From: Escherichia coli
GTDB taxonomy: Bacteria > Pseudomonadota > Gammaproteobacteria > Enterobacterales > Enterobacteriaceae
NCBI RefSeq assembly: GCF_044324785.1
Contig: NZ_CP172127.1
Reading direction: 5' to 3' (one strand)
Length of the DNA stretch: 64,000 nt
Positions within the stretch are counted from its first letter, which is position 1; each line of letters opens with the position of its first letter. A model generated the notes under the pieces. The model worked only from the letters and a program-made list of their open reading frames with translations. It searched no databases and was not told the origin of the DNA. Below, in pieces: positions 1,315 to 16,555 of this stretch. The position numbers and the translations under genes are program-made.

Positions 1315-1333
1315 GTGCCAATCCGGTGTGTGG
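1315..1333 (+). repeat. shufflon 19-bp repeat 1 (gtgccaatccggtgtgtgg)
   Basis: Exact match to the repeat inside pilV (reverse complement of 2578..2596). Confidence 0.85.
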
Positions 1334-1705: not shown

Positions 1706-1709
1706 GGAC

Positions 1710-2061
1710 TCACATCTGATAGGCATACACAGAGAAAACACCGTTACCACAGGCGTAATTTTGTGTTGGTCTGGAGATGATTTGATATGACGCTCCCACT
1801 GGCACGGCAAATGAAATAAATGCTGTCTTTCCGTAGGAGGGGTTATTGCTGGCATTCATACCAATGAAAGCGCCGTTCACATAGCCCTGAAGATTTGATG
1901 TGTTGGCGCAATCACCGCCACCGGCACCATTTCCACCGGAAGCGTACACAAACAAAGTTCCTCTGCCGTTATTTCTCCCGTTAAATGTTCCCCGGTGAGA
2001 ACCCAGATTGCTGTAACTTCCGTCAGGTGCACCAATCGTTCGCCACACACCGGATTGGCAC
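1710..2061 (-). CDS. silent alternative PilV C-terminal cassette A' (Gly/Asn-rich)
   Basis: Open frame on minus strand running from repeat 2 (CQSGVWRTIGAPDGSYSNLG...) to stop at 1710; convergent with cassette A. Confidence 0.55.
2043..2061 (-). repeat. shufflon 19-bp repeat 2 (inverted orientation)
   Basis: Plus strand reads ccacacaccggattggcac, the exact reverse complement of repeat 1. Confidence 0.85.
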
Positions 2062-2069
2062 GGAGGCCA

Positions 2070-2088
2070 GTGCCAATCCGGTTTGTGG
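2070..2088 (+). repeat. shufflon 19-bp repeat 3 (one mismatch: gtgccaatccggtttgtgg)
   Basis: Direct orientation; separated from repeat 2 by an 8-bp spacer. Confidence 0.8.
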
Positions 2089-2295
2089 CTTGGAGGCAAT
2101 AAAGTGAACTATTCTGCCTGTAAATGGTATGAAGCGACCTCCGCACATTTTATCGGTGGCAGAAGCGGAGGCTCTATTTATTACAAGCCGATTCAGTGCC
2201 CTGCCGGGTACGTCATGACAGGTACAAGAATGTACGGCATCGGAGATGGTGTTGATGAAGAGCACGTCGATGCTTACTGTTGCCCTTTTGGTTAG
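2070..2295 (+). CDS. silent alternative PilV C-terminal cassette B' (Cys-containing)
   Basis: Open frame from repeat 3: CQSGLWLGGNKVNYSACKWYEATSAHFIGG...CCPFG; convergent with the currently expressed pilV C-terminus. Confidence 0.55.
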
Positions 2296-2331
2296 ATTCC
2301 GAGGGCCGGTATTTAATTTTCTCCCGTTGGC

Positions 2332-3534
2332 TTATTTCTCACAGATTGCTATAGCCTGGAAACAACTCAGGGAGCCAGAGCCAGTAGCAATCCACCGATT
2401 GTTTTTGTAATCAGGGTAACTACCATCTGGTGAGTTGTATCCGTTATGGACCCACTGGGATAACCTGTAGCCGCCGGAGACCAACTTACTCCCCGATGGG
2501 CATACCGCGTAAGACGATGTCTGAAAGCACCCATTCCCGCCGGATACTGTGAAACGCTCTTTTTTGTCACTGTTTTGCCACACACCGGATTGGCACGAAA
2601 GTATTGCCCCTTTACTGTCGCGGCCTACAAGTCCGTCCGGTGAGCAGGAAGTACCTGCGGTGGCTGTTTTTTCCAGCTGTAAATACTCACCCGTGGAAAG
2701 ACGCCCCTCAGACCGGACAGTTCCACCACTGACTTTTCCTCCTTTGAGCTCTCCTTCGGTTGTGATCCCTTTGTTGTTAACAGCACGTATCCATTGGCTG
2801 TCCGTCATGGTGAAGCCGCCACCATTTGGATGTAACCAACGATTTGATGTGACATCGCCTGAAAATCTGGCGTTTTTACCACTGGCTTCATTGATATTGG
2901 TGATGCTGTTATTATTCATATCAATGCCAGTATGCATTCTGTTTAAATCGGGTCTTCCCTGAACGCTGTAGCGGTAAAGCCGATCGCTTTCCTCCAGATC
3001 TTTTCCAGCCATTCGCATGGCGATATGCCCCTTGTTGCAGGTAATCTGATAATTACTTCCCAGATCGGTCCAGCCGCCAAAGGCACCTGTAACGGAATTA
3101 TTCTGGAGCATAAAACCACCGAGTCCATTAATCTGGCCCGCTATGCGACGTAACCCATCTTCTTTAATATCCTGTCCTCCGGTTGTGCAGGTAAGTGCTT
3201 CCAGACGACCGGATAAATTATTTTTTCTGATACCGGTAATATAGCTGTGTCCAAAGGGGGAGCGGGAAAAACCGTTGTTCAGATATCCCTGCTGAATTAA
3301 TTCATTTACCGTGATGGTTTTACTGGAAAGTGAGCTGGTTTTATCAGCCACATAATTCTTTATTGCATTATTATATTCATCAGCATGTAAAGCCGCACTT
3401 TGATAAAGTTGTTCATTCAGCCAGTCTTCAATTTCTGAATAAATCATTGGCGTGGCGATACCAATTACTATCAGGCCTGCCAGAATTTCAAGCAGAATAA
3501 AACCTTTATCGTCATCGTGTCTGAATTTTTTCAC
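2332..3534 (-). CDS. pilV: type IVB minor pilin/adhesin PilV, current shufflon isoform (400 aa)
   Basis: Prepilin-like N-terminus (MKKFRHDDDKG/FILLEILAGLIVIGIA); C-terminal third lies inside shufflon segment B; GTG start overlapping the pilU stop. Confidence 0.8.
   Translation of the reverse strand: MKKFRHDDDKGFILLEILAGLIVIGIATPMIYSEIEDWLNEQLYQSAALHADEYNNAIKNYVADKTSSLSSKTITVNELIQQGYLNNGFSRSPFGHSYITGIRKNNLSGRLEALTCTTGGQDIKEDGLRRIAGQINGLGGFMLQNNSVTGAFGGWTDLGSNYQITCNKGHIAMRMAGKDLEESDRLYRYSVQGRPDLNRMHTGIDMNNNSITNINEASGKNARFSGDVTSNRWLHPNGGGFTMTDSQWIRAVNNKGITTEGELKGGKVSGGTVRSEGRLSTGEYLQLEKTATAGTSCSPDGLVGRDSKGAILSCQSGVWQNSDKKERFTVSGGNGCFQTSSYAVCPSGSKLVSGGYRLSQWVHNGYNSPDGSYPDYKNNRWIATGSGSLSCFQAIAICEK
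2578..2596 (-). repeat. shufflon 19-bp repeat 4, inside pilV at the constant/variable junction
   Basis: Plus strand reads ccacacaccggattggcac; in pilV it encodes CQSGVW. Confidence 0.85.
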
Positions 3535-4181
3535 GTGAATATCTCCGATGTGTGGATAACGGAATCAGGGAAGAGGGTCAGCACATACAGGGACCCGCAG
3601 AGAAACGGGGCAAACGGCAGCGCCAGCTGGCGTCTGCGACGGCAGAAAATGAGGATAAACAGAAATGCTCCGGAGGCTGCGGCGGTGATTATGAGTGGAG
3701 TGTGTTGCGGTTGCGTCCACATTGCGATCCCCGCAATCAGGAACACATCACCAAGGCCGAGCGCTTCCGTCCCTTTCGCTGCCAGAAAAATGCGTCGTAA
3801 CAGGTATATCATGCCGAACCACAGTGACGCGTTGAGCAGGGCATGAGCCAGTGAGTCCTGGCTGTATCTGAACGCTGCGCCCAGAATAATAAGAGAAAGC
3901 GTGAATATCCGGGGAAGCCGACAGACAGCAATATCCGTCAGCGTCATTACAGTTAATAATCCCGTCAGAATGGAAAGGAATAACAGTCCTGTCGCGTCAA
4001 CACCATATGCACCGTTGAGGCAAATGCTCAGGACAGCCAGAAGACAACAGATGCACACCGCAGCGTTGTGTGGGCGGGTATTGTGTACTTCTGATAAATA
4101 TACTGTGGCGGCGCTGTATGAAAGATACAGAATTGCCGCAAGGACAATCAGGATAATGCATATCGGGAGTAATTCAGACAC
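3531..4181 (-). CDS. pilU: prepilin peptidase (216 aa)
   Basis: Polytopic membrane protein in the expected pil-operon position; GTG start. Assigned by synteny with the R64 thin-pilus operon and hydrophobicity profile. Confidence 0.65.
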   Translation of the reverse strand: MSELLPICIILIVLAAILYLSYSAATVYLSEVHNTRPHNAAVCICCLLAVLSICLNGAYGVDATGLLFLSILTGLLTVMTLTDIAVCRLPRIFTLSLIILGAAFRYSQDSLAHALLNASLWFGMIYLLRRIFLAAKGTEALGLGDVFLIAGIAMWTQPQHTPLIITAAASGAFLFILIFCRRRRQLALPFAPFLCGSLYVLTLFPDSVIHTSEIFT

Positions 4182-4193
4182 AGTTACCTCAGC

Positions 4194-4670
4194 TTAATCT
4201 TTTCTGAAATACCGGTTGTGGATTATTCGGGCATATATCATGCGCCGGGCTGTGTTATTTTTGCTGAATCCTGCGTTGTAACTGCCAAGGCATTCCCAGT
4301 TAACGCCGCAGCGTTGAAAATGGCGGGCCAGTATCCAGGCACCGGTATGAATATTCAGGCAGGGCTTTTTAAGCAGTTCATCCTTGTTTTTAATGACGCC
4401 CAGTTTTTTCAGTTCAGGAATATGCACTGAATTAATCTGCATTATTCCGTAATCCGTACTGATGATTTTTCCGGATTTGTTTTTATTGTGATTTATCGCA
4501 GTGGCGACCAGGCCGCTTTCCTGCTGTGCAATGGTTTTCAGAAGCTCAGGGGCAATCAGGTAACGTTTTCCGGCCTGAATAAAACAGGAATCGAGATGAT
4601 TATTATTCATCACAGATGCGATTGATGTGTGACTGAATAAAAGCAGGACAGAGAGATATAACCATTTCAT
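4194..4670 (-). CDS. pilT: lytic transglycosylase, SLT domain (158 aa)
   Basis: Signal peptide followed by SLT-like motifs (TIAQQESG, YGIMQIN); in R64-type operons pilT is a transglycosylase, not the retraction ATPase. Confidence 0.75.
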   Translation of the reverse strand: MKWLYLSVLLLFSHTSIASVMNNNHLDSCFIQAGKRYLIAPELLKTIAQQESGLVATAINHNKNKSGKIISTDYGIMQINSVHIPELKKLGVIKNKDELLKKPCLNIHTGAWILARHFQRCGVNWECLGSYNAGFSKNNTARRMIYARIIHNRYFRKD

Positions 4671-4728
4671 TATGATAATCCCGGCAGTGACAGCATCCTC
4701 TGGTATTTAAGGATGCTGTCCGGAAACA

Positions 4729-5265
4729 TTAGCTGTTTGTTTCAAGGGTGATGTTATTTTTGTCGTTACTACATACTGTTACGGGATCCACAGTAGCCGG
4801 GGCGGTATTCATGATTTTGGTAAACATGGATGAACTGCGCAGGCTGTTAATGAGTTCCACGCAATTTTCTTTCGGTACATTATTGCTGGTAATCGTATAA
4901 CCATACTTATCTGCTGTTGCCTTAATGGTGACATCACCGCCCCAGGCATTTTTGGCCTTGTTACCACCGGCGATCATATCGGCCGGCAGGGAACCACTCT
5001 GCGTCAGCGTTTTGATATAATCACTGCTGGTATATTGTCCCTGGAACTTGTACTGCTTCATTTTTGTTGCAATAGTCTGCAGGTTTTTCAGTTCACGCTG
5101 GTTATCACTGGATGACATTGTGCTGGACATCTGACTTATTGCGAGAGATACCACAATACCGATGATAATCAGTGCACCGGCAACTTCCAGTAAGGTTAAA
5201 CCTTTATCCTCCTCTTTCTCTTTTTTTAAAGCAAAATAAGAATAAAGACATGATCTGAAGTTCAT
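4729..5265 (-). CDS. pilS: type IVB major prepilin (178 aa)
   Basis: Long leader then G/LTLLEV cleavage motif and hydrophobic alpha-helical N-terminus; AGGAG RBS upstream. Confidence 0.8.
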   Translation of the reverse strand: MNFRSCLYSYFALKKEKEEDKGLTLLEVAGALIIIGIVVSLAISQMSSTMSSSDNQRELKNLQTIATKMKQYKFQGQYTSSDYIKTLTQSGSLPADMIAGGNKAKNAWGGDVTIKATADKYGYTITSNNVPKENCVELINSLRSSSMFTKIMNTAPATVDPVTVCSNDKNNITLETNS

Positions 5266-5314
5266 ATATCACTCCTGGTTTATGGGATGTTTCAGAAATA
5301 TTCTGTATGCGGGA

Positions 5315-6415
5315 TTATTGTTTCAGCATGTCGCTGATACTGTAGATGGCAGATATCATGTTAAGAATAAAAAAGAAGACAAAACCTCCTGATATACCGG
5401 TAATAATTAATCCCATTCGTTTTACCCGTTTTTTTGCCTCTTCCAGCCACTGATCGGCATAGAGTGCCATGGTTGCCACTCTGTCCTCCCTTTCGGAGTT
5501 CAGGAGCAGTTTATTGATGCATATTCTGGACGGAAAATCGTAACCGGAATTTCGCATTGCTGTGGCCAGATTCTGACCGGATAATACATGTTTTCGTATT
5601 GCCTGAATTCTCTCCTTTAACCATTTATTCTTTTCTGCACCTTTTTCCATTCGGAGCAGCGCCTGCGAAAGAGGAATATTAATCTGCAGCATGGATGAAA
5701 TACTGAACAGATAATTCACCCCGTGTAAGGTCTGATACAGTGACCAGGGGGGAGCCTTGTCCAGCATCCTCCGGCCGGGGCCGGTATACCGGCTGAATGA
5801 AAAACGGATCAGAAGCGTCAGGGCGAAAATGGTCCCACAGAGCCAGAATCCGTACCCGATGAAAAATTCCGACATGCCGGCAAGCAATTTCATCTGGAAT
5901 GACCATTTATCTTCTGAAGCAAACGCACTGACGATGGGGATGATACGGGTATGGGCGTTGTACATATTCACCACACAGAGCGAAAGCAGCAGAAGGGGGT
6001 AGAGGCAGACGGCAATGAGGCTGGATGTCATTTCCCGCCGGGCTTTAACGGTTCTGGCCACCTGGAAAAGGGCGTCGGCAATATTTCCGCGCTCTTCCCC
6101 GTTTCTGATTAACGTGGCTTCCTCCGGTGGCACCCAGGTTAACAGGGCACCGGATAACATGCCGCTGGCTTTGATGGAATCGATGCATTCTTTTGCCAGA
6201 AAATACATGCCGGATGTGCCTTTCTTTTCACCAAAATCGGTTTCGATCTCGCAGAGAAATTCGAGTGCACGCAGGGACGGCGTTCCGTCACGTATCATGC
6301 CGCCCAGGGCTTCGTAGAACTCCACCCGGTTCAGGGCAAAGGTTTTTCTGGCTATCCAGACAGTCAGTGCTGTCAGCTCAATGTCGGTGTTGTTGAGTTT
6401 TTCCAGAAATCTCAT
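5315..6415 (-). CDS. pilR: type IV pilus inner-membrane platform protein, GspF/PilC-like (366 aa)
   Basis: Start set to ATG at 6415 (MRFLEKLNNTD...), immediately after the pilQ stop; size agrees with R64 PilR. Confidence 0.7.
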   Translation of the reverse strand: MRFLEKLNNTDIELTALTVWIARKTFALNRVEFYEALGGMIRDGTPSLRALEFLCEIETDFGEKKGTSGMYFLAKECIDSIKASGMLSGALLTWVPPEEATLIRNGEERGNIADALFQVARTVKARREMTSSLIAVCLYPLLLLSLCVVNMYNAHTRIIPIVSAFASEDKWSFQMKLLAGMSEFFIGYGFWLCGTIFALTLLIRFSFSRYTGPGRRMLDKAPPWSLYQTLHGVNYLFSISSMLQINIPLSQALLRMEKGAEKNKWLKERIQAIRKHVLSGQNLATAMRNSGYDFPSRICINKLLLNSEREDRVATMALYADQWLEEAKKRVKRMGLIITGISGGFVFFFILNMISAIYSISDMLKQ

Positions 6416-6416
6416 G

Positions 6417-7937
6417 TCAGTGCAGCAGCGTATAGCTGTCCTCGTCGATGGGAGAGATGTAATGGGCCGCCAGCGGATCAACCTGCCCGCTGTTGATTTT
6501 TCCCAGCAGATGCTGATTTCGTGTCATGCCGCCCAGCTCCCGGTGCCAGTATGTTCTGGCCTCAATACGCCCCTTTTCCCGGTACAACTGGAAAAAACGC
6601 GCATCCGGGGAGATGACTTCTGCGATCACCGTTCGTCCTGTCACGCCACGCCAGCAGTGCGGGCAGCCTTCATGATTTCGCAGATATACCTGGTCCGGGT
6701 TGCAGACGCTTTCCACCAGGCGCCGTTCATCATCCGTGCGCTCGGTAGCCACCTCATGCCAGGGGCGACGGCAGTGCGGACATATCAGCTGAACCAGACG
6801 CTGGCTCAGCAGGCCAATGAACAGTTGCGGGTCGGCAATCATCCTGGCCTGTACCCCCTCCATCTCAAGACGTTCGAGGATGTTAATCGGGTCGTTCGCA
6901 TGGATGGTGGTCAGCATCAGATGCCCGGTCATGGCGGCTTTTATTGCCGTAATGGCGGAATCGTGGTCACGGATTTCGCCGTTCAGGATCCCGTCAGGGT
7001 CAAGACGCAGTGCTGATTTAATGGAGTCCACCCAGCCCTGTGCGGAATCCATGACGGCGGTCTGAATGGCACCGGGTATACGGCCCTCTGGCGGGGATTC
7101 AATGGTGAACAGCCTGCGACGGGGCAGAAGAATACCGCCGGTATTGTTGAAGCCGTACTGTTCAAGGTACGCCGCAGAGGCGGTTCTCAGCGTGGTGGAT
7201 TTTCCTGAACCTGTTGGTCCTGAGAGCGTGATAATACCTTCAGGGCGCTGCAGAATACGGCGCAGGGTGCGCTCCTGCTCAGGGTGGTAGCCCAGCATGC
7301 TGAAGGTCGGGATTTGCTGACTGTCATCCTTGATCAGACGGAGCACAGCATAGAGGCCGCCCACGCAGGGATAGTGGGAGTAGCGTGCACCAAACAGACC
7401 GGCCAGTTTCAGGTACTGCTCTGAAAGACGCGCATCCTGAGGCACCCCGGGATCAAACTGTGTGCCCTTGATGACGTCGGTCATGCCGGAATAGGTGGCC
7501 CCCAGTAATTCGAGGCCTTCTTCTTTCCGGAGGATATCGAGCACTTCCAGTTCGCCGTGAACCCGGGCTTCCACATAGGTGAAGTCCGTGTTGTCTCGTC
7601 CCGGGGTCATATGAAGGTCTGAGGCATCCAGTTGAGCGGCTTTTCTGATGTAATCAAGAACTTTTCTTTGTACTGTGTTGATCCCTCCGTCGGATAAAAC
7701 GCCCGGTGCACGTTCCGTATTATTGCTGTTCAGGGTTGCGATAACGTCAAGAGTGGTAAAATCGAATTTGCTGATTTTTCCCGGATAGCGGGAGCGTAAG
7801 AGCGTCAGGTAACGTTGTACAGAGGTGATGTGCTTCTTCGCCTCGACGACTTTCACCCTGATTTTTCCGTCAGCGTCATGCTGAATTGCGACGAAATCAC
7901 GAATATCTTCAGGAGGCAGTTCGATAGTCTCTGGCAT
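6417..7937 (-). CDS. pilQ: type IV pilus assembly ATPase, GspE family (506 aa)
   Basis: Walker A (LSGPTGSGKSTTL) and tetracysteine motif (CPHC...CPHC). Confidence 0.85.
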   Translation of the reverse strand: MPETIELPPEDIRDFVAIQHDADGKIRVKVVEAKKHITSVQRYLTLLRSRYPGKISKFDFTTLDVIATLNSNNTERAPGVLSDGGINTVQRKVLDYIRKAAQLDASDLHMTPGRDNTDFTYVEARVHGELEVLDILRKEEGLELLGATYSGMTDVIKGTQFDPGVPQDARLSEQYLKLAGLFGARYSHYPCVGGLYAVLRLIKDDSQQIPTFSMLGYHPEQERTLRRILQRPEGIITLSGPTGSGKSTTLRTASAAYLEQYGFNNTGGILLPRRRLFTIESPPEGRIPGAIQTAVMDSAQGWVDSIKSALRLDPDGILNGEIRDHDSAITAIKAAMTGHLMLTTIHANDPINILERLEMEGVQARMIADPQLFIGLLSQRLVQLICPHCRRPWHEVATERTDDERRLVESVCNPDQVYLRNHEGCPHCWRGVTGRTVIAEVISPDARFFQLYREKGRIEARTYWHRELGGMTRNQHLLGKINSGQVDPLAAHYISPIDEDSYTLLH

Positions 7938-7946
7938 GATGGCACC

Positions 7947-8408
7947 TCACGGGAGTAGCGTCTGCCTGTTGCCGTTGTATTCCAGAATCACACTGTCCGG
8001 TGTGATTTGTTCCACCATGAACAGTGTACCGGGTAATGCCTGTCCGGCCCTGACATCAGTTTCAGTTCCTCCGGGGAGTATGACGCGTGCTGAAAGCTGT
8101 GGCTGAATACCAAAGATTTCTTTCAGACGGGGGGATGAAAATGCCTGTGAACCGGAGGAGGTGCCAGCCGCATTTTCCGGCTGATGTCCCGTGACAGAAC
8201 CGGAAACCGGGGAGATACCCTGTTCCAGTGTCCGCAATTCATGACGAATTTTTTCTCTTGCCAGCATCGCTTCATACAGGGCGGTTTCTTCCTGAATCTG
8301 CTCAATCTGCAGTTGTTTGTTCTGTGACGCGTCATTTTCGTTGCCGGCCACTGCCATTGCCGGTAACAGCAGGGCTGCAATCAGCAGCGCTTTTGTTTTA
8401 TCGTGCAT
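7947..8408 (-). CDS. pilP: pilus assembly protein PilP-like (153 aa)
   Basis: Internal ATG at 8408 gives a signal-peptide N-terminus (MHDKTKALLIAALLLPAMAVA); size matches R64 PilP. Confidence 0.65.
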   Translation of the reverse strand: MHDKTKALLIAALLLPAMAVAGNENDASQNKQLQIEQIQEETALYEAMLAREKIRHELRTLEQGISPVSGSVTGHQPENAAGTSSGSQAFSSPRLKEIFGIQPQLSARVILPGGTETDVRAGQALPGTLFMVEQITPDSVILEYNGNRQTLLP

Positions 8409-9693
8409 AATATTTACCTGTGAACTGATAACGGAAACGACCATTTTCCAGTTGTCTTGTGACAGAGAGAAAACGGACAGATGGCTCGCTGAAGCGCTCT
8501 GCCAGCTGGTTAGCCGGGAGTAGCGTCTGTATCTGCAGGTCATACTCTTTCCACGGTGGCTGGATGATGTTTCCGTTTTCATCAGTGAAGCTGTTATTGA
8601 CTTCCTGCCAGTCAATCTGCAGTTGAACTGACTGTGCGAGCGTGGTCAGTCGTTCCTGCAGGTCTCGGGTTTCCGGAAGGGAATCAACCGGGACAGGATT
8701 ATCCGGGAGCCGGAATGTGACCGGCAGTGCAACGCCGCCAGAGTTCCCTTCAGGCATAACAATAAACGGCCGGGTGTCTGTGAGTTCAGTGATGCGCCGG
8801 ATGAAGGCTGTCACTGTCGTGCCTGCTGTATTGGTGTATGAAGACCGCAGATTACCGCTGTTACCGTCAGAAGAACATTCAGCCAGGGTATAACGCCATC
8901 CGGCAGCAGACAGTGGCGTCTGGTTCCATGTTGTGCTGCATTGCCGGATAAATTCTCCGCTCTCAGGCTGCCTCGTCCATGGTGGCGTTATACGTGCTTC
9001 AGCTGCTTTCCGGGCGCTTTCTTCCCGTTCCGCTTTTTCCGCCTGCCAGATTTCATAACGTTGCCAGCCGTACCACGATGCGCCAAGCAGCGTGATGATG
9101 AGTAAGGCTGTCATTAACTGTGGGCCTCTGGACACGGGGAGCAGACGCGCTTCTGCCGGATGCTTTCTGGTGCTGATCAGGTTTGACAGCGGTAGCGGGA
9201 TACACCGACTGTCTGGTGAAAAACCGTCAGGTTCGTAGCGTACCCAGCCGTTTTCCGGTTCCGCATTGAGCATCAGGAACGTGTTGCGGGCTTCCGTGAT
9301 TTCAGTCGGGGTACCGGTAACGTCGTTAACCAGAATGCCATTAATCACCGATACAAACGCACAGGTGAGTTCAGCGTCGTCGTTCTCGTCGTTCCCGATG
9401 ATGAAAATGGCATACCCACCTGATTTGAGTAGCGGGCGTATTAACATTGCCAGTGACAGGCACTGGCGAATGTTACGGGGGATATCTGCATCCTGACGAC
9501 TGAGCAGGGCAATCATCATTTCATCACCGTTTTCACCGTCGTGGTTGTGGCAGGAAAGATACAGTTCTGCGCCCTGTGACCGGGCAAACCGCCGGGCATT
9601 CCGGTAACCGGGAGGTATGCTCTTCCAGTCAAGGCCCGCAAGGAATGCCTGTTTACCCGATATCAGTGAAACCGGACGAATTTTTTTCTGCAT
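8398..9693 (-). CDS. pilO: pilus assembly protein PilO-like (431 aa)
   Basis: Start at ATG 9693 (MQKKIRPV...); length equals R64 PilO as I recall it; one internal TM segment. Assigned by synteny. Confidence 0.65.
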   Translation of the reverse strand: MQKKIRPVSLISGKQAFLAGLDWKSIPPGYRNARRFARSQGAELYLSCHNHDGENGDEMMIALLSRQDADIPRNIRQCLSLAMLIRPLLKSGGYAIFIIGNDENDDAELTCAFVSVINGILVNDVTGTPTEITEARNTFLMLNAEPENGWVRYEPDGFSPDSRCIPLPLSNLISTRKHPAEARLLPVSRGPQLMTALLIITLLGASWYGWQRYEIWQAEKAEREESARKAAEARITPPWTRQPESGEFIRQCSTTWNQTPLSAAGWRYTLAECSSDGNSGNLRSSYTNTAGTTVTAFIRRITELTDTRPFIVMPEGNSGGVALPVTFRLPDNPVPVDSLPETRDLQERLTTLAQSVQLQIDWQEVNNSFTDENGNIIQPPWKEYDLQIQTLLPANQLAERFSEPSVRFLSVTRQLENGRFRYQFTGKYYAR

Positions 9694-9716
9694 TGACCCG
9701 TTCAAGGGAACCTCCG

Positions 9717-11342
9717 TCAGATTACGTGCGGTGTGATCAGCACAACCAGAATGGTGTCATCGTCACCGCTGTCAGTGCCGCCACCCAGCCCGAAGAATGC
9801 CGGGCTGCCGACGCCCTGGCGCACGGATTTGCTGCCGGACTGCCGGAATCCGCTGAGAATGACGGTCTGACCTGATTTCAGGTCGATGGTCTGGTTGATG
9901 GTTTTCAGGTCCACCGTGGGTACCTGTGCCCGGCTGCCGCCGCTCTCGAACACCTCAAAGGTGGGTTTGTCGGAGAGGTTCATGCTGAAGAGCAGCTGCA
10001 GGCTGCGCGCATCCGGCTGAATGAACGGCAGCAGGGTCATGTTGAAGCCGGTGGTGATGGTGGCGGCGTTCAGGGAGGTGCTGGTCCCGACGTTGGCCGT
10101 GGTGTCGGTGGTGACACCTTCGATATAGCCCTGCTGGCTGGCCACCTGCATGGGCACCGGCGTCATGTTTTTGGTGACGGCGGAGTTCTGTGTGACCACG
10201 CTGACGGTGCCCTGACTGGAGAGCGCCTTCAGGAAGGCCTTCGAGCCGGTGAGCTTACCGTCCACAATGGAGACGCCACTGGTGATGATGTCATCGGCGG
10301 CACTGCTGAATGCCCCTCCCAGCGTGAGGCCGAGACGTCCGTCGCTGAAGACGGCATTCCAGTCAATGCCGGCCTGGTCACGGCGGGTTTTTCTGACGCT
10401 GAGGACTTCCACGTTCAGCACCACCTGACGTCGCATCTCGCGGTTACGTGCCTCCACAAAACGGCTGACGGTGTCGAGGACCCGAGGGGTGTCGGTGACG
10501 GTGAGAAAGCCGGTGGCAAGCACCATCCGGCCGGTCCCGGGGGTCAGCATGGCACCGACGGCATTTTTCAGGTCCTCATAGAGGGTGGACTTCATGTCGA
10601 CCGTGGTGGTCTGGGTGTTGCTGGCCTCCCCGCTGAGGGTGCCGGCGTTACTGCCGGTACTGCTGCCGGATGAGGAGGAGGCGGTGCCACTGACCACCCG
10701 GGCGTTGTAGGTCACCTGAGAGTCCATGTAGGTGACCGGGAAGGTGCGTGTCTCCAGCCAGTAAAAGGTGATGGCGCGCCGGTCACTGTCGTAACGGTAC
10801 GAGATACCGAGCCGGGAGGCGACGGTATCCAGCAGCTGCCGCAGCCCGGTGGCGCTGAGTTCCGGCAGGACGGCACCGCCGCCCGGGGGGATGACCTGTG
10901 CGCCACTGCCGACGGCGGCCAGCGGCACCATGCCGTTCGGGTCCGGTGCGGGGATTGCGCCTGTCAGCTGCTGTGTGGGGCCGGTGGTGGCCAGCGCCTG
11001 CCAGACGTCGGCGGTGATGGTCACGGGGATACCGCAGCTTCCGGTGATGCGCTGGGCTATCTGCCGCAGGCTGATATCCCGGCGGGTGTTGATGATGATG
11101 GGGCAGCCCGGCAGGCTCTGGTGTGCGGGGCTGACGCTGACAGGGGAGGGGTTGATCCACTGTCGCGTGGTCTCCGTGACCACCGGCCGGGATTTACGGA
11201 GTTCGCCTGCGTGCCGGCGCGCTTTCTCCAGTGTGGCGGTGGCGTCTTTTTCCGTGTTGCTGATACGTTCGGCCGTACCGCAGCCTGACAGCAGCAGGGC
11301 GACGGCAGTCAGTGGCAGGAGCATGTGTTGTCTTTTTTTCAT
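9717..11342 (-). CDS. pilN: outer-membrane secretin lipoprotein (541 aa)
   Basis: Lipoprotein signal (MKKRQHMLLPLTAVALLLSGCG); secretin-like C-terminal region (...ILVVLITPHVI). Confidence 0.8.
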   Translation of the reverse strand: MKKRQHMLLPLTAVALLLSGCGTAERISNTEKDATATLEKARRHAGELRKSRPVVTETTRQWINPSPVSVSPAHQSLPGCPIIINTRRDISLRQIAQRITGSCGIPVTITADVWQALATTGPTQQLTGAIPAPDPNGMVPLAAVGSGAQVIPPGGGAVLPELSATGLRQLLDTVASRLGISYRYDSDRRAITFYWLETRTFPVTYMDSQVTYNARVVSGTASSSSGSSTGSNAGTLSGEASNTQTTTVDMKSTLYEDLKNAVGAMLTPGTGRMVLATGFLTVTDTPRVLDTVSRFVEARNREMRRQVVLNVEVLSVRKTRRDQAGIDWNAVFSDGRLGLTLGGAFSSAADDIITSGVSIVDGKLTGSKAFLKALSSQGTVSVVTQNSAVTKNMTPVPMQVASQQGYIEGVTTDTTANVGTSTSLNAATITTGFNMTLLPFIQPDARSLQLLFSMNLSDKPTFEVFESGGSRAQVPTVDLKTINQTIDLKSGQTVILSGFRQSGSKSVRQGVGSPAFFGLGGGTDSGDDDTILVVLITPHVI

Positions 11343-11531
11343 GCAGAAATCCTTGTGTGAAACGTGAAAACAGTGAGCAGAGCAGGGAGGGCAGAAGCGC
11401 TTCGGGACTGAAGTCTGCGCGTGATGGCGATATATCCGCGGGACATGACCGCGGCCGGATATGCAGACTTCAGTCCACAGGCTCCTCACACTGTGCGGGA
11501 CAGCGAAGGTTAACGGTGCAGTGATGTCCCG

Positions 11532-11969
11532 CTAGTTGAAATAAACAAATGCGCTGTCAGGAATGACGGACGGCACGCTGATACCGGTGTCCTGACCTGT
11601 GGTGTTCAGCAGTCGCCGCCCCTTCACCCGGCCTGCCAGCGCGGTTTTGTGGGTGATGTCTGCCAGCGCACCTGCAAGCCCCGGGCGGTCATCCTGCCAG
11701 ACAAAGACCCGCTGTCCGGCGATGATATGGCGGGTACCGTATACCGGGCGGAAACCCGTGGCGGTGACGGGGAGCGTGCCACCCCCCGTGCGCTCAGCCG
11801 GATGGGTGTACAGCCGGTCGTTAATGCCGTTCATGAGGCGGACCATCTCCCACGCACGTTCACGCATCTCCGCCTGCTCGCTGTACACGGTGACCCGGTG
11901 GGTACTGCTGTTGTGAAACCAGGTCAGCGCCACGGTCAGGGCCATGACCAGGGAGAGCGACCAGCCCAT
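11532..11969 (-). CDS. pilM: pilus assembly protein PilM-like (145 aa)
   Basis: Start at ATG 11969 (MGWSLSLVMALTVALTW...), directly after the pilL stop. Assigned by synteny and size. Confidence 0.6.
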   Translation of the reverse strand: MGWSLSLVMALTVALTWFHNSSTHRVTVYSEQAEMRERAWEMVRLMNGINDRLYTHPAERTGGGTLPVTATGFRPVYGTRHIIAGQRVFVWQDDRPGLAGALADITHKTALAGRVKGRRLLNTTGQDTGISVPSVIPDSAFVYFN

Positions 11970-11971
11970 GG

Positions 11972-12697
11972 TCAGTCTCCCGGTCTGTCGCTGACGTGCA
12001 CCACACACTGCGTGCTGTTGATGGCTGCATACAGCGGCGTCTGTGCGTCCTGATAGAGACGGAAGAGTTCACTGAGCGCGTGGCGGAACTCGCCGGTGAA
12101 ATGCAGCGGCGCATCGATGCTGTAATTGAGTCCGGGGTTCTGCCAGGCCAGCTGCCAGGTGCCACCGGCCTGACAGGGAACGGCGGCCACCCACTGCTCA
12201 AGACCGGCACGCAGCAGGGTTCCGCGGGCAAGAGTCCAGGTGGTCCGTGCATGCGCCGGTTGCGGCATGTTTGCTGATTTTTCCGCGGTTTTTTCCTGCA
12301 GACTGGTGGTGCCCGGGGTGGCCTGAGACGGACTGAACAGGGTGTTCCGCTCAATACGTACATGCTTCTTCTCCGTGTCGGTGATGGCGCGGAGCTGATA
12401 TTTTTTCAGCATGCGTTCCGTAACGTAATTCCACTGGTCATTTCCCTTCCATGACACCGTGCGGGGCGGCCTGACATCCGGTGCAATGTCAAATGTCCAT
12501 CCCGGCGGTATCAGTTGCTGCATGGCTTTTTTCAGTGATAACCCTTTACCGTCCCGGGGAATAAATTTCAGTGCTCCCGGAGCGCTGCTGACCGTGGACG
12601 ATGAGGGTGCACTGACCTGAGAAGGTGACGGTGCAGCAAAAAGTGGAACAGAAAATGCCAGCAGCGGCACAATAAGAAGTGGTTTCAGTGGTGTCAT
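11972..12697 (-). CDS. pilL: pilus assembly protein PilL-like, secreted (241 aa)
   Basis: Signal peptide (MTPLKPLLIVPLLAFSVPLFAAPSPS); first large gene of the operon. Assigned by synteny. Confidence 0.6.
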   Translation of the reverse strand: MTPLKPLLIVPLLAFSVPLFAAPSPSQVSAPSSSTVSSAPGALKFIPRDGKGLSLKKAMQQLIPPGWTFDIAPDVRPPRTVSWKGNDQWNYVTERMLKKYQLRAITDTEKKHVRIERNTLFSPSQATPGTTSLQEKTAEKSANMPQPAHARTTWTLARGTLLRAGLEQWVAAVPCQAGGTWQLAWQNPGLNYSIDAPLHFTGEFRHALSELFRLYQDAQTPLYAAINSTQCVVHVSDRPGD

Positions 12698-12749
12698 ATT
12701 ATGGTCCTGTATCGCACATTTTTTGTGTTTCCTGAGCCTGTATCCGGTT

Positions 12750-12968
12750 TTATTCCGGCTGAACTCTGCTGCATGAGAATGCGGTGACGTTCACTTTCAC
12801 ACTGAACGATTTACCGGCCTCTTTTTCTTTTGAAAACAGCCTGACGCATTCAGGCTCAGTCATCGGTGTGTTCTGAAAACGCACCCAGGATACCGGTGCA
12901 CCACCAGGCTTCAGGATGGTGGCTTCAATCCGGTATTTATGCGGTGTGGTGTCTGTTGTTGCTGTCAT
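12750..12968 (-). CDS. small hypothetical protein (72 aa) leading the pil operon
   Basis: ATG preceded by AGGAG at about 6-nt spacing; co-directional with pilL, about 50 bp upstream. Confidence 0.45.
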   Translation of the reverse strand: MTATTDTTPHKYRIEATILKPGGAPVSWVRFQNTPMTEPECVRLFSKEKEAGKSFSVKVNVTAFSCSRVQPE

Positions 12969-13005
12969 TCATGGCTCCTGTTGCCGGTTTCCGGTCCCGG
13001 AAAAA

Positions 13006-13047
13006 CAGGCGACATCAGCAACAAGGGGAAAAACGCGATGTCGCCTG
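13006..13047. promoter_or_regulatory. perfect 11-bp inverted repeat (caggcgacatc ... gatgtcgcctg) in the divergent control region between the pil operon and the helicase operon
   Basis: Seen directly in sequence; candidate operator or stem-loop. Confidence 0.35.
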
Positions 13048-13494
13048 AAAGGTACTGGTGCAGCGGTGCGTTGTACGGACGCAGGTCCGCACAACCGGAA
13101 ATACACGGGATGATTCGGTCAGTGTATTTTCGTGTTGTGCGCCTGTACTGATACGGCAGGGTGTGATGAGTGTTACCTGTGGCTGCAGGCGCGGCACGTC
13201 ACTCATAACGTAGCATTCTGTTTCCTCCTCAGCCCGGCTTCAGGGCGTTGCCGCAATACCCGATTGTTAAAGAGCCTTACCGGCATGGTGTCCGGTGTCA
13301 CCGCGCGGATAACGATACGGCGGTGTCTGAAGGGATGATGCTGCGGCGCTCTGCACATGGCGACGATTAATTCTTTTTGTGTTTCTGAAAATTTATTGCC
13401 GGGAAATTTCTGGTGTGACAGGGTGAATTAATTCTGGTCAGCGACGCTCCTGAGAAGGCAGAGTGCGCTGACATTTCGTGAACGGAGGAATGCC

Positions 13495-15003
13495 ATGTCC
13501 CTGAATCCCACCGATGAACAGTCAGCCATCATTCACTGGCAGGGGGAAAAACTGGTGGTGAATGCCTTTGCCGGTACAGGCAAAACCAGCACACTGGTGC
13601 AGTTCGCCGCAGCCTGCCCTGAGAGCCGGATGCTGTATCTGGCCTATAACCGCGCGATTCGTGATGAGGCGGAGCGCCGGTTTCCCTTTAATGTGGAGTG
13701 CAAAACCTCCCATCAGCTGGCGTATTCGCGGTTCGGAAAGCATTTCCGGCATCGTCTGGTGCCGGGGCTGTCAGTGACGGATGTAGCGAGAAAACTGAAC
13801 ACCCGCTACTGGACGCTTGCCCGTGTTGCCATGACCGCGCTGAATCAGTTCATCTGTTCGGCGGACGTGGCGCCCGGAATGCAGCATATGCCGCCTCCCG
13901 ACGAGATGAAGGGCATGTCGCCACAGGATGCGCTGCGTGCCGTGCAGATCCTCTGGCATGAAATGAGCAATCCGGATGGCAATTTTCCGGTCACTCACGA
14001 CACCTATCTGAAGCTCTATCAGCTTTCCTCACCGGATCTGTCACGCAGGTGGGATACGATCCTTTTTGATGAGGCCCAGGATGCGAATCCGGTGACGTCC
14101 GCACTGGTGCTGGGGCAGCGGTGCAGGGTGGTACTGGTTGGCGACCGTTACCAGCAGATTTATCGTTTTCGTGGTGCCAGCAATGCACTGTCGCATCCGG
14201 CACTGAACGGGGCGGACCGTCTCTGGCTGACGCAAAGTTTTCGTTTTGGTCCTGCCGTGGCCGGGGTGGCCAGCCAGTTACTGAAGCGTGCCGGCGAGAG
14301 CCGTGAGGTGACCGGCAGGGGCGGGGATGATGAAGTGCTGACGGCAGGTGAAATGCGTGCGCGCGTGAAGGCAGGGAAGATGACCGGTCACAGGGCGATA
14401 CTGAGCCGGACGGTGGCCGGTGTGATTGGCACCGCACTGATGGCGGCAATGCGTGGCAGGAAGGTTTACTGGGTGGGGGGCATTGAAGGCTACAGAACGG
14501 AGGCACTGGAAGATCTTTACTGGTTTCAGATGGATATGCCGGAGCGGATGCACAGTGACAGACTGCGGAAGGACTACCGGGGTTTTGACGAGTACCGTCA
14601 TATTGCGAAGGTGACGAAGGATGTGGAAATGAATCAGTCCATTCGTCTGCTGGAGCTGTGCTTTCCGCTGCCGAAGAAACTCGAACTTCTCAGAAAGCAC
14701 ACCGTCACGAATGAACAGGAGGCGGATATCACGGTCTCAACGGCACACCGCAGTAAGGGACTGGAGTGGTCACTGGTGGTACTCGATGATGATTTTCAGG
14801 ATATCACCGACCCGCTGATAAGCGAGCAGGAGCGGCGGGATGAAACCAATCTGCTCTATGTGGCGGTCACCCGGGCGCGCAGAACGCTGGTTCTCAATGA
14901 ACTCATGCAGCAGCTGACGGAAGCTGCCGGCGATGGTGGTGCACCCGGAAACGCGCCGGTGCAGGGGAAGGAAGACGATGGTGTGGAGGGAGAGGATGTT
15001 TAA
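13495..15003 (+). CDS. UvrD/Rep-like superfamily-1 DNA helicase, short form (502 aa)
   Basis: SF1 motifs in order: Walker A (AFAGTGKTS), DEAQD (motif II), VGDRYQQIYRFRGA (III), SFRFG, TAHRSKGLEW (V), LYVAVTRAR (VI); GGAGG RBS. Confidence 0.8.
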   Translation: MSLNPTDEQSAIIHWQGEKLVVNAFAGTGKTSTLVQFAAACPESRMLYLAYNRAIRDEAERRFPFNVECKTSHQLAYSRFGKHFRHRLVPGLSVTDVARKLNTRYWTLARVAMTALNQFICSADVAPGMQHMPPPDEMKGMSPQDALRAVQILWHEMSNPDGNFPVTHDTYLKLYQLSSPDLSRRWDTILFDEAQDANPVTSALVLGQRCRVVLVGDRYQQIYRFRGASNALSHPALNGADRLWLTQSFRFGPAVAGVASQLLKRAGESREVTGRGGDDEVLTAGEMRARVKAGKMTGHRAILSRTVAGVIGTALMAAMRGRKVYWVGGIEGYRTEALEDLYWFQMDMPERMHSDRLRKDYRGFDEYRHIAKVTKDVEMNQSIRLLELCFPLPKKLELLRKHTVTNEQEADITVSTAHRSKGLEWSLVVLDDDFQDITDPLISEQERRDETNLLYVAVTRARRTLVLNELMQQLTEAAGDGGAPGNAPVQGKEDDGVEGEDV

Positions 15004-16525
15004 GCGGTTCAGACGTATGCTGCCCGGCACAAAGGGCACGGAGCCTGGCGTGGTCGCGCCGGTGATACCGGCAGGGTTTTATGCGCCGCTCACGGCAGAG
15101 GCACTGTTATCACCAGAGCACAGGGAGCTGAGGCTCAGGCAGGTCTGGGATAACAATCCGATGCCCCGTGATGTATACGACAGGATGTGCCTTGAACCAC
15201 TCAGCCGGCTGCTGCTGAACACCCAGAACGTCCCGGCAACACGGGAAGGACGGTGGTCCCGTGCCGGTGGATTTGGTGATCTGACGGTACTGTACACCAC
15301 GTATGCCGTTCGTCTGGCAAGAGGGTACATGTTTCCACCGGATGCGACCCCGGAAGACCAGGCGGCTCAGGCCGCAGTCTGGCATGCGGTGATTTTCTGG
15401 TCAGCGCTGTTTTACCACCTGCCCCTGCTGGCGCACCTTGAGGGGGAACTGCTGAGTGGGCGGGGCTGGCAGCCAGGAATTTCTGTGCCTGACGAACCTT
15501 TCCGTTTCCGGTTCAGGAAGACGGCGCCGCAGGGTACGGAAGCGCAACAACTTGCGGCCCTGACTGCCGGCACGCTGTTACCGGACGGCGCAACGGCCTG
15601 GCTTGTGACGGCGCCGGGCGCACTGCAGAATCTGGCCGGGGCGCTCTGGCATCAGCATCCCGGGATGGCGCTGATTCGTGATGTGCTGCAGGAAGCGGCA
15701 AGGCAGACAGAGAGTCCGCTGAATACCTGCGCTGTCACTGCGCCGGTTACTGCGGAGGCTTCAGCAGACATTCGTCCTGCTGACCCGGTGGTGACCGGCA
15801 GCACGGACAGTGTGGTGGCAGTCACTGAGGTGCAGCCGGCAGAGGAGGTGAAGACTGAGAGCGTGCAGACAGAGACTGAAGGTGGTGGTGAGTCCGCCGG
15901 GGCGTCAGAGGTGCCGTCCGCACAGCAGGAACTGACGGTTCAGACAGCGCCAGTGGTGACGGCAGATGATGAAGCGGTCAGTGCTGCTCCTGCGGATCAG
16001 GACACAGCAATGCTGCTGAGTCTTTTTTCAGCAGATGAGTCCGAAACTGCTGAACCTGAAAACAGTATTAAATCGTCAGCCGATCGGGACGGCCAAAGTG
16101 ACGTACCGGCAGTACAGGGAGAACAAACCAGCGTTATTTATCCGGAGGGCGAAGCAGATACGGAAGAGGTGGATTTTATTACTTGGCTGAAATCGGGGTT
16201 GTCATCGGGGATGATTGAAATAAATACACCTTCCGCGAGAGTGCATTGTATTGCGGGGTATGTTTTTTTGTGTGTCCCGGATATTTTTTATCTGTATCAG
16301 AAAATGACGGGAAGCCGTCGTGACCGCAGGAGTGTTCAGGCGTTGTTTGAACGTTCCCGTATTCACAAAATCCGGGAAGGTGAGCGTTTTTTCAGCCTGC
16401 ATCTGTATAGTGTACCTGACAGAACAGGGAGTTATAAAGCTGTAAGCGGATATCTGGTTAAAAGCCGTTATCTGTGTGGTTATAACGCAGTGCCCGGGGA
16501 CAGTGAATACATTGCTTTTCCATAA
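14996..16525 (+). CDS. hypothetical 509-aa protein: N-terminal domain, long acidic low-complexity linker, conserved-looking C-terminal domain
   Basis: ATG overlaps the helicase stop (ATGTTTAA) with GGAGGG RBS; no Walker A and no HD motif found by eye; alternative starts at 14933 or 14978. Confidence 0.6.
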   Translation: MFKRFRRMLPGTKGTEPGVVAPVIPAGFYAPLTAEALLSPEHRELRLRQVWDNNPMPRDVYDRMCLEPLSRLLLNTQNVPATREGRWSRAGGFGDLTVLYTTYAVRLARGYMFPPDATPEDQAAQAAVWHAVIFWSALFYHLPLLAHLEGELLSGRGWQPGISVPDEPFRFRFRKTAPQGTEAQQLAALTAGTLLPDGATAWLVTAPGALQNLAGALWHQHPGMALIRDVLQEAARQTESPLNTCAVTAPVTAEASADIRPADPVVTGSTDSVVAVTEVQPAEEVKTESVQTETEGGGESAGASEVPSAQQELTVQTAPVVTADDEAVSAAPADQDTAMLLSLFSADESETAEPENSIKSSADRDGQSDVPAVQGEQTSVIYPEGEADTEEVDFITWLKSGLSSGMIEINTPSARVHCIAGYVFLCVPDIFYLYQKMTGSRRDRRSVQALFERSRIHKIREGERFFSLHLYSVPDRTGSYKAVSGYLVKSRYLCGYNAVPGDSEYIAFP

Positions 16526-16555
16526 CAGCACCGGGTCATTCATCCGTTCAGGGAG

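Follow-up and report, generated by a model that had tools for sequence, protein, structure and literature searches.

ICEEc2 is reportedly an integrative conjugative element (ICE) of E. coli BEN374, and ICEs of the SPI-7 family are said to occur in Enterobacteriaceae. In SPI-7, the pil block is situated near the replication-gene end of the element. ICEEc2 uses the pheV and pheU sites and belongs to the pKLC102/PAGI-2/PAPI-1 family (PMC11537424, PMC6761156). Other copies of pheV/pheU ICEs of this kind than the one discussed here, obtained from clinical E. coli, are transfer-proficient (PMC13127887). SPI-7 family ICEs and the Salmonella element ICES1 reside at tRNA genes and carry a type IVB pil operon that resembles the one of R64 and includes rci; such ICEs are made of independently mobile regions, and phylogenies indicate that the pil operon has been transferred more than once (PMC3401170).

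The window considered here is the whole analysed stretch of 64,000 nucleotides from Escherichia coli (contig NZ_CP172127.1), in which positions 1 to ~17950 form the right-hand end of an MPF_G ICE at tRNA-Phe (pheV). The kind of ICE is already known (MPF_G; PAPI-1 / pKLC102 / ICEclc / SPI-7 / ICEEc2) and does not represent a new kind of system; the element is probably ICEEc2-like, as assigned from its insertion site, host type and family only. A MOBH relaxase of the TraI_2 type (14996-16525) and a PF00589 integrase (16568-17668) precede the tRNA-Phe gene (17873-17948), past which lie yqgA and then speC in the RefSeq annotation of an identical island. An Rfam search returned nothing beyond the tRNA. 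In the 100%-identical strain APEC E19035, the 50 kb upstream, which fall outside the window, are annotated by RefSeq with TIGR037xx ICE genes, TraD, TraG_N, a STY4534-family gene and topoisomerase III, and the “integrating conjugative element” T4SS set is complete there (TIGR03745-03759, the conjugative ATPase, the TraD coupling protein and the TraG N-terminal protein). The ICE backbone has a GC content of 0.57-0.64 and a GC3 of 0.64-0.72. A sister ICE (L004) occupies the other Phe tRNA gene, pheU, and its backbone is only ~76% identical to that of the window ICE. The same pil-helicase sequence is carried by 36 complete E. coli genomes. The gene names given in the original prediction are correct, as judged by Pfam and by the RefSeq annotation of the identical island, and the features of the region are as follows.

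128-1252, minus strand: rci, shufflon-specific tyrosine recombinase (PF00589; GC 0.49)
1304-2607, unstranded: shufflon with invertible segments, bounded by four sfx-type inverted repeats of 19-21 nt
1313-1333, 2043-2063, 2070-2089 and 2577-2596: the four sfx-type repeats, of the GTGCCAATCCGGT type, in both orientations
2332-3534, minus strand: pilV, pilus tip adhesin with a shufflon-variable C-terminus (PF04917 Shufflon_N; GC 0.46)
3531-4181, minus strand: pilU, prepilin peptidase (PF01478; GC 0.52)
4203-7626, unstranded: plasmid-identical recombination tract, 99.2% to the IncB/O/K/Z plasmid pMTY9803 (L002)
4194-4670: pilT, transglycosylase (Pfam SLT)
4729-5265: pilS, pilin (Pfam PilS)
5315-6415: pilR, platform protein (Pfam T2SSF)
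6417-7937: pilQ, assembly ATPase (Pfam T2SSE), from about codon 105 to its end inside the plasmid-identical tract
7627-9700, minus strand: ICE-specific segment with the pilQ 5' end, pilP (7947-8408) and pilO (8398-9684; PF06864); GC 0.52-0.54
9717-12697, minus strand: GC-rich segment with the secretin gene pilN (9717-11342; Pfam Secretin_N_2 and Secretin), pilM (11532-12008; PilM) and pilL (11972-12697; TcpQ)
12750-12968, minus strand: DUF1187 gene (PF06688; 71-75% nt identity to L004)
13495-15003, plus strand: UvrD-like helicase of the ICE end module (UvrD Pfam domains; GC 0.58, GC3 0.66)
14996-16525, plus strand: traI, MOBH-type relaxase of the TraI_2 family (PF07514, residues 30-229, E = 1.3e-16; PF07515, residues 393-505, E = 1.3e-15)
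16056-17860, plus strand: alternative end cassette with the traI 3' end and a tyrosine integrase (16568-17668; PF00589)
17873-17948, minus strand: tRNA-Phe (pheV), integration site and right element boundary (ARAGORN and Rfam)

Composition of the ICE end

The GC content of the region is not uniform. In 500-bp windows over 1-17800 it ranges from 0.400 to 0.684 (sd 0.065), against a core mean of 0.510 (sd 0.041) over 18000-64000, and this compositional heterogeneity is far above chance. Recursive Jensen-Shannon segmentation, in which a split was kept only if its statistic was at least 18, placed change points at 4345, 5715, 9760, 12265, 13585 and 15995; the controls, 20 Markov-shuffled sequences of 20 kb, reached a split statistic of at most 11.6. 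The resulting segments are:

1-4345: GC 0.49
4346-5715: GC 0.42
5716-9760: GC 0.54
9761-12265: GC 0.64
12266-13585: GC 0.53
13586-15995: GC 0.60
beyond 15995: core, GC 0.51

The original prediction had divided the island by eye into a GC-rich class, comprising pilL-pilN and the helicase pair, and an AT-rich class, comprising pilS through the shufflon and the integrase. The GC-rich class is real: positions 10300-11300 have a GC content of 0.661, where the core 1-kb maximum is 0.572, and positions 13500-16000 have 0.600, where the maximum for a core window of 2.5 kb is 0.556. At the gene level, GC/GC3 is 0.64/0.81 for pilN, 0.64/0.76 for pilM, 0.58/0.62 for pilL and 0.58/0.66 for the uvrD-like gene, and the GC3 of long core ORFs is 0.45-0.66. 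The AT-rich class stood only in part. pilT and pilS together (0.428) fall under the core 2.5th percentile (0.438) and pilV (0.46) is marginal, but pilU (0.519), the shufflon at 1253-2331 (0.503) and the integrase (0.487) are all within the core range, and the integrase does not stand out from the core in composition. A partition into two classes is also too simple in that pilN-pilL belongs to one module and the helicase pair to another, as distinguished by codon usage: each of the pil groups comes closest to plasmid tra genes (r = 0.78-0.87), and uvrD together with the N-terminal part of traI comes closest to the type IV secretion genes of the ICE (r = 0.88).

A share of the GC profile is intrinsic to the genes. 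In every orthologue examined, whether from an ICE or a plasmid, pilS and pilT are low in GC (0.42-0.44) and rich in FYMINK residues (0.34-0.38), and pilQ has a GC content of 0.55-0.57 in the two ICE variants and in the two plasmids of the IncB/O/K/Z type (0.48 in L092, a plasmid further removed). Accordingly, the low GC of pilS and pilT and the high GC of pilQ are inherited gene properties and not module edges. These same values, along with the position of change point 5715 inside a tract 99% identical to a plasmid, are what would be expected of an island of single origin, in which GC differs because each protein is under its own constraints, for example of amino-acid composition or expression level. 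Such an account was examined for equally high pilN and pilM GC3 among relatives and for uniform divergence, neither of which was found, and it is highly improbable. The GC3 of pilN is 0.81, against 0.56-0.60 in orthologues of 65-69% protein identity, with its amino acids shifted to GARP residues, and that of pilM is 0.76, against 0.41-0.69. Moreover, identity jumps between 99%, 96%, 76% and unalignable within one operon, and the integrase cassette is replaced in most copies.

Identity changes along the pil operon and end module

Independently of composition, the proposal that the island is built from modules of different origin is supported by abrupt changes of identity along the region. The 99.2% identity to pMTY9803 over 4203-7626 falls to only 63-83% on both sides. 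Dense mismatches stop at 4202, 21 mismatches are found within 4288-7626, and the alignment ends at 7626. An assembly artefact is unlikely given that the same structure is present in the 36 complete genomes. The allele of this tract matches 128 PLSDB plasmids at 95% or more, and transfer would have proceeded from plasmid to ICE, a direction suggested solely by the allele being much commoner and more diverse in plasmids. Short conversion patches are also seen in comparison with another ICE, L005: at 6353-6537 and 7515-7617, the window has the plasmid allele and L005 the allele of L004.

Positions 2583-9620 are 96-99% identical to the sister ICE L004. The segment 7627-9700 has 98.7% identity to L004 and ~73% to plasmids (PilP and PilO ~60% aa); the N-terminal constant part of pilV has 98% nt identity to L004 and only ~68-81% to pMTY9803, and PilU has 97% and 78% aa identity, respectively. 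Past 9620, identity to L004 drops to 79%, with dense divergence beginning at 9759, and most of pilN, pilM and pilL is then unalignable. The opposite end of the block resembles the plasmid: rci is 92.5% identical to pMTY9803 at the nt level (94% aa), traF-traE are 94.4% identical, and the shufflon segments (GC 0.50) are 98-99.7% identical, some of them being inverted relative to the plasmid. Gene order is the same as in pMTY9803 and a further plasmid, L003.

In the end module, ~530 bp of non-coding sequence separate the DUF1187 gene from the uvrD-like gene, and small inverted repeats are found at 13006-13047 and 13088-13141. The UvrD-like protein is 82% identical (aa) to that of L004 and 57-66% identical to those of many Enterobacterales, with traI and then int always next to it. 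Identity of traI to ICE L005 stops exactly at 16055, after which the traI 3' end and the integrase are wholly replaced in most copies of the same ICE. Only 8 E. coli genomes carry the cassette at 16056-17860 with at least 99% identity, compared with 36 that have the adjoining pil-helicase part; the cassette is 78% identical to L004-type ICEs, and its integrase has 47% aa identity to that of L005. The traI gene has a GC content of 0.57 overall, with 0.617 over the initial 1060 bp and 0.462 over the final 470 bp. TraI is chimeric: residues 1-353 are part of the GC-rich backbone, and residues 354-509, including the TraI_2_C domain, are part of the swapped cassette.

The identity breakpoints thus lie at 4202 and 7626 (plasmid pMTY9803), 9620-9759 (ICE L004) and 16055 (ICE L005). 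GC change points 4345, 9760 and 15995 fall within ~150 bp of three of these, and change points 5715 and 13585 have no matching breakpoint. Composition and ancestry are only loosely coupled, and module boundaries can be read from GC steps only imperfectly: of the six steps, three lie at recombination breakpoints and two elsewhere, and at 7626, the breakpoint that is sharpest, there is no GC step. The region is demonstrably a recombination hotspot, which speaks for a GC enrichment that arose in place through GC-biased gene conversion or local mutational bias, with no foreign origin. Such an origin is nonetheless highly improbable, as the most recently recombined segments (4203-7626 and the shufflon) are GC-poor and the GC-rich segment has no recombination partner; the 32-60% protein divergence of pilN-pilL from all relatives indicates long separate evolution and not recent conversion. 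Very probably, the region is a mosaic of different ancestries, mosaicism being a well-known property of ICEs and plasmids.

The GC-rich pilN-pilL segment

The segment at 9717-12697 has a GC content of 0.62 overall. When 5.8 billion proteins were searched with PilN, the nearest match outside its own cluster was 68% identical, and relatives at this level are enterobacterial and not GC-rich. A distant-mode search of PLSDB for pilN-pilL gave ~70% identity at best, with more than 80% only over a fragment. A 91% partial match, P0025, was considered as a donor lead but is the same sequence again, at 99.2-99.8% identity, on a short, frameshifted contig from a metagenome. A breakpoint within pilN, suspected from an N-to-C identity gradient, was similarly dismissed because the gradient is common to every relative and reflects domain conservation.

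The dinucleotide distance of pilN-pilL is 171 from the core and 58 from the ICE backbone, and that of uvrD with the traI N-terminal part is 161 and 61, respectively. The codon usage of pilN-pilL correlates at r 0.83 with plasmid tra genes and at 0.75 with ICE genes. The claim that pilN-pilL is compositionally ICE backbone was therefore softened, as GC and dinucleotide usage agree with it and codon usage does not. Simple amelioration towards the backbone of the ICE accounts only in part for the GC3 and codon usage of these genes.

The pilN-pilL segment may be an un-overwritten remnant of the block as first captured. Alternatively, it could be no remnant at all but a late import from an unsampled GC-rich donor that replaced plasmid-like genes. 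The GC3 of pilN and pilM (0.76-0.81) exceeds that of the ICE backbone (0.64-0.72), and the PilN, PilM and PilL proteins of the window, L004, pMTY9803 with L003, and L092 form four roughly equidistant lineages; the sister ICE L004 has an AT-rich pilM-pilL in the corresponding place, and this end of the operon has evidently been swapped often. Set against these points, no donor of GC-rich pilN-pilL was found among the 5.8 billion proteins or PLSDB, P0025 being the same sequence, and all copies seen have pilN-pilL directly adjoining the GC-rich backbone of the ICE. On this evidence a late import is possible though somewhat unlikely.

A probable patchwork of ancestries and its relation to known systems

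The make-up of the region may be drawn as follows. A conserved end module, composed of the uvrD-like helicase, the TraI_2 relaxase and the integrase, has beside it, in the cargo slot of related ICEs, a ~15-kb block collinear with IncI-complex plasmids (traF, traE, rci, shufflon and pilV through pilL). The pil block is recast as cargo because no pil genes were found near related uvrD-traI-int modules in the 40 best GTDB loci of a UvrD alignment scan, with flanks of up to 10 kb upstream; in Salmonella/E. coli and Klebsiella relatives, the slot holds pgaABCD or a CBASS-like cluster. Block and end module have very probably been rewritten repeatedly by homologous recombination with co-resident relatives, giving a patchwork of at least five ancestries: (i) rci, the shufflon and traE/F, 92-99.7% plasmid-like; (ii) an ICE-specific pilV N-terminal part and pilU; (iii) pilT to pilQ, 99.2% identical to an IncB/O/K/Z plasmid; (iv) the pilQ 5' end, pilP and pilO, from an ICE-specific lineage common to the pheU sister ICE; (v) pilN to pilL, from a deep GC-rich lineage for which no donor was found; (vi) the DUF1187 gene, uvrD and the traI N-terminal part, from the GC-rich ICE backbone; and (vii) the traI C-terminal domain and integrase, as an exchangeable cassette. 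The GC profile reports this mosaic history only in part, the low pilS/pilT and high pilQ values reflecting gene-specific inheritance.

The stitching of a pilus operon and end module by recombination with IncI-complex plasmids and sister elements is ordinary for such mobile DNA. It is evidence that a chromosomal ICE has recently exchanged DNA with widespread IncB/O/K/Z resistance plasmids, in an operon that sets mating-pair formation and recipient choice, and bears on the co-evolution of E. coli mobile elements in poultry and human strains; its importance is modest. A bolder and rather doubtful reading is that repeated gene conversion keeps the mating-pilus operon of the ICE in step with those of co-resident IncB/O/K/Z plasmids, and that this is functionally meaningful rather than neutral noise. 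The ICE and plasmids would then have pilin, assembly ATPase, platform and the adhesin tips of PilV in common, and possibly also recipient specificity or cross-complementation of the thin pilus. The gene-conversion reading draws on the 99.2% identity of the 3.4-kb tract, on shufflon segments that reach 99.7%, and on patches of 200 bp at which ICE copies that otherwise match differ from one another.

ICEEc2, alongside which ICEKp2 is named as a near system, is likewise an ICE of avian and extra-intestinal E. coli that is inserted at tRNA-Phe (pheV/pheU), and it is likened to the window ICE in its MPF_G gene set, TraI_2 relaxase, tyrosine integrase and type IV pilus cluster. The window-type ICE comes with either of two traI-C/integrase cassettes, and its sister lineage at pheU has a backbone at ~76%. 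The window ICE is likened to the SPI-7 family in its STY4534-family replication gene, and its pil block adjoins the uvrD-traI-int end. The thin-pilus operon of R64 and the IncI-complex plasmids (IncI1, B/O, K, Z) has the same order, traF-traE-rci-shufflon-pilV-U-T-S-R-Q-P-O-N-M-L. The R64-order gene set pilL-pilV is present in the window, with Pfam matches for all except PilP (PilN, PilQ, PilR, PilS, PilT, PilU and PilV included), as are Rci, the Shufflon_N PilV and inverted sfx-type repeats that bound alternative PilV C-termini. In contrast to the plasmid genes, window pilN and pilM are far more GC-rich, and identity to them is ~60% aa for pilP and pilO, 65-67% for pilN and 29-39% for pilM and pilL. 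On a plasmid replicon such an operon is linked to a full I-type (Dot/Icm-like) conjugation system, of which the block has no more than the orphan genes traE and traF beside it. The surrounding chromosomal ICE has a G-type system of its own, and the block is therefore a captured fragment and not an I-complex plasmid.

Gene content and insertion locus

The genes originally called in the island agree with Pfam scans and with what RefSeq annotates in identical islands (E. coli GF60; APEC E19035, 100% identity).

Features of the right end of the element
128-1252, minus: rci
1313-2596, minus-strand group: shufflon with four sfx-type inverted repeats
2332-12697, minus: pilV, U, T, S, R, Q, P, O, N, M, L
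after pilL, minus: DUF1187 gene
13495-15003, plus: UvrD-like helicase
14996-16525, plus: TraI_2-family relaxase (traI)
16568-17668, plus: tyrosine integrase
17873-17948: tRNA-Phe

Beyond the tRNA-Phe lie the core genes yqgA, speC and nupG, which identify the locus as pheV; the insertion site of ICEEc2 in E. coli is pheV/pheU (PMC11537424, PMC6761156). The 50 kb upstream in an identical strain carries a full “integrating conjugative element” transfer gene set, TraD, a STY4534-family gene and topoisomerase III. Thus, the window begins within an MPF_G ICE of the PAPI-1/SPI-7/ICEEc2 kind, and by its sequence the element passes as such in each respect that could be checked.

Within the operon, the annotated pilN start lies ~190 bp from the pilM stop (11343-11531), although a GTG at 11489 would give the longest pilN ORF; the overlap between pilM and pilL is 37 bp. 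The interval between the DUF1187 and uvrD-like genes (12968-13495) comprises ~530 bp of non-coding DNA and, beside the relaxase operon, is a candidate oriT or regulatory site. It contains two small inverted repeats, one whose 11-nt arms match perfectly (13006-13016/13037-13047) and one at 13088-13101/13128-13141.

Compositional heterogeneity

The compositional heterogeneity that the original prediction had read by eye is real and significant, although some of its details were wrong. The GC content of 1-17800 ranges from 0.400 to 0.684 in 500-bp windows, against a core mean of 0.510 (sd 0.041). Recursive Jensen-Shannon segmentation was applied, with a cut-off of 18 on the split statistic; the top split in Markov-shuffled controls reached 11.6.

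Compositional segments
1-4345: GC 0.487
4346-5715: GC 0.415
5716-9760: GC 0.542
9761-12265: GC 0.638
12266-13585: GC 0.525
13586-15995: GC 0.603
from 15996: joins core, GC 0.511

The two stretches singled out as GC-rich, 10300-11300 (0.661) and 13500-16000 (0.600), exceed the maxima of equally sized core windows (0.572 and 0.556, respectively). GC3 is 0.81 in pilN, 0.76 in pilM and 0.66 in uvrD, and spans 0.45-0.66 in 24 long core ORFs. The supposed AT-richness is seen in pilT and pilS together, whose 0.428 falls under the core 2.5th percentile, and marginally in pilV (0.46), but pilU (0.519), the shufflon (0.503) and the integrase (0.487) are within the core range.

The ICE transfer backbone has a GC content of 0.57-0.64. 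Dinucleotide signature distances from the core are 171 for pilN-L and 161 for uvrD-traI_N, against less than 87 for 95% of core 3-kb chunks; their distances to the backbone are 58 and 61, with the edge of the backbone's own spread at 60. By codon usage, uvrD and traI_N are closest to ICE transfer genes (r = 0.88), and every pil group, the GC-rich one included, to plasmid tra genes (r = 0.78-0.87).

Outside the window, the same ICE contains a further compositional module, a type III restriction-modification gene pair (L006, ICE DNA from upstream of the window, 5783-10737; GC 0.36, GC3 ~0.32) that is its most AT-rich cargo. A sharp AT-rich stretch in the core (50321-50805, GC 0.31) is intergenic between a prohibitin-family gene (49345-50289, minus) and a plus-strand PTS EIIA-like/EIICB-like pair (50630-51073 and 51101-52489), and resembles the usual AT-rich promoter region between divergent genes.

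Identity breakpoints and exchange with plasmids

That the island was built from modules of different origin is borne out, independently of composition, by identity breakpoints against three relatives. Relatives were sought in PLSDB and in 5,426 complete E. coli genomes, and four were profiled for identity over the length of the window.

Identity to the IncB/O/K/Z plasmid pMTY9803 (L002)
rci: 92.5%
shufflon segments: 98-99.7%
pilV N-terminal part and pilU: 68-83%
4203-7626 (pilT, pilS, pilR, pilQ from about codon 105): 99.2%
pilP-pilO: about 73%
pilN: about 70%
pilM, pilL: essentially unalignable

Dense mismatches to this plasmid cease at 4202, 4288-7626 has 21 mismatches, and the alignment stops at 7626. 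The sister ICE at pheU (L004) is 96-99% identical over 2583-9620, with mismatches dense from 9759, the pilO/pilN junction, and ~10800-12790 unalignable (amino acid identity 68% for PilN, 44% for PilM and 41% for PilL); DUF1187, uvrD and traI are at about 76% and the integrase at about 78%. Another copy of the window's ICE at pheV (L005) matches at 99-100% to exactly 16055, which is TraI residue 353, ahead of the TraI_2_C domain (393-505), and is unrelated thereafter (Int 47% amino acid identity). The window's traI-C/integrase cassette occurs at no less than 99% in 8 genomes only, and the adjoining part in 36.

At 95% identity or more, 128 PLSDB plasmids share the 4203-7626 allele; every one of them is conjugative, most come from E. 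coli or Shigella, and plasmids are thus likely its reservoir. Two SNP clusters set the window apart from the otherwise 99-100% identical L005, one of 19 sites at 6353-6537 and one of 7 sites at 7515-7617. In both, the window carries the plasmid (L002) allele and L005 that of the pheU ICE, a pattern that suggests short conversion tracts of 100-200 bp. I-complex plasmids are also mosaic in the pil operon, as L002 and a further plasmid, L003, share 99% identity in PilN and 43% in PilU.

The GC change points at 4345, 9760 and 15995 lie within ~150 bp of the breakpoints at 4202, 9620-9759 and 16055, and the chance that three of the six change points in 16 kb would match so closely is, as a rough estimate, ~0.01. 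In both ICE lineages and in each of the three plasmids examined, pilS/pilT have a low GC (0.42-0.44) and encode FYMINK-rich proteins (0.34-0.38). A high GC in pilQ (0.55-0.57) is common to both ICE lineages and two IncB/O/K/Z-type plasmids (0.48 in the more distant plasmid L092), and the step at 5715 falls within the 99% plasmid-identical tract. These are inherited gene properties and not seams. At 7626, GC shows no step although the seam is sharp.

Origin of the pil block

Just upstream of the window, the ICE has traE and traF (L006 150-2275; L001, a second such ICE sequence, 13790-15915) at 94.4% identity to an IncB/O/K/Z plasmid and in plasmid order, as orphans of an I-type transfer system that is otherwise absent from the ICE. 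The uvrD-traI-int trio is present in many Enterobacterales (GTDB genome scan with a UvrD alignment), and pil genes are near it in 0 of the 40 best GTDB loci, in flanking DNA up to 10 kb upstream. In related end modules at pheU or pheV, the slot of the pil operon holds pgaABCD or a CBASS-like cluster (Salmonella/E. coli, Klebsiella). The pil block is read as captured plasmid DNA, with its codon usage in agreement. The slot spans 2916-9142 in L087/L088 and 1744-6055 in L089, end modules of other ICEs, and the CBASS-like cluster consists of SMODS, ThiF, JAB and SAVED. A truncated autotransporter gene flanks traE/traF in both ICE lineages.

No donor was found for the GC-rich pilN-pilL, and PLSDB held no plasmid match above 80% beyond a fragment. 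Beyond its own cluster, the closest PilN is that of an E. coli ICE (68%), and next come those of I-complex plasmids (65-67%), Serratia (52-54%) and Pseudomonas (49%); PilN, PilM and PilL fall into four roughly equidistant lineages, namely the window, L004, L002/L003 and L092. A 91% partial match was rejected as donor, as it turned out to be the same sequence. Among the relatives compared, pilN and pilM are GC-rich in the window's ICE type only: GC3 is 0.56-0.60 for pilN in orthologues with PilN 65-69% identical, and 0.41-0.69 for pilM there, and the window's PilN and PilM are shifted toward GARP residues. The favoured reading is that pilN-pilL is the part of the captured block not yet overwritten by E. 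coli-resident alleles. With a GC3 above that of the ICE backbone, however, the segment may instead have come in later from an unsampled GC-rich relative, and this reading stays a serious rival.

The finding of mosaicism is correct in the main, with its details refined, and is of an ordinary kind. That ICEs are mosaics is textbook knowledge (Wozniak and Waldor 2010, as cited in PMC6761156 and PMC3401170), and SPI-7 has been described as a composite with independently mobile regions (PMC3401170). Phylogenetic evidence points to multiple transfers of the type IVB pil operon in SPI-7-like ICEs (PMC3401170). Only one point is mildly notable, the near-identical ICE-plasmid tract within the operon governing mating-pair formation. 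Judged by sequence, the pil block passes as an R64-type thin-pilus operon with shufflon in every respect that could be checked but one, as it lacks attachment to an I-type plasmid.
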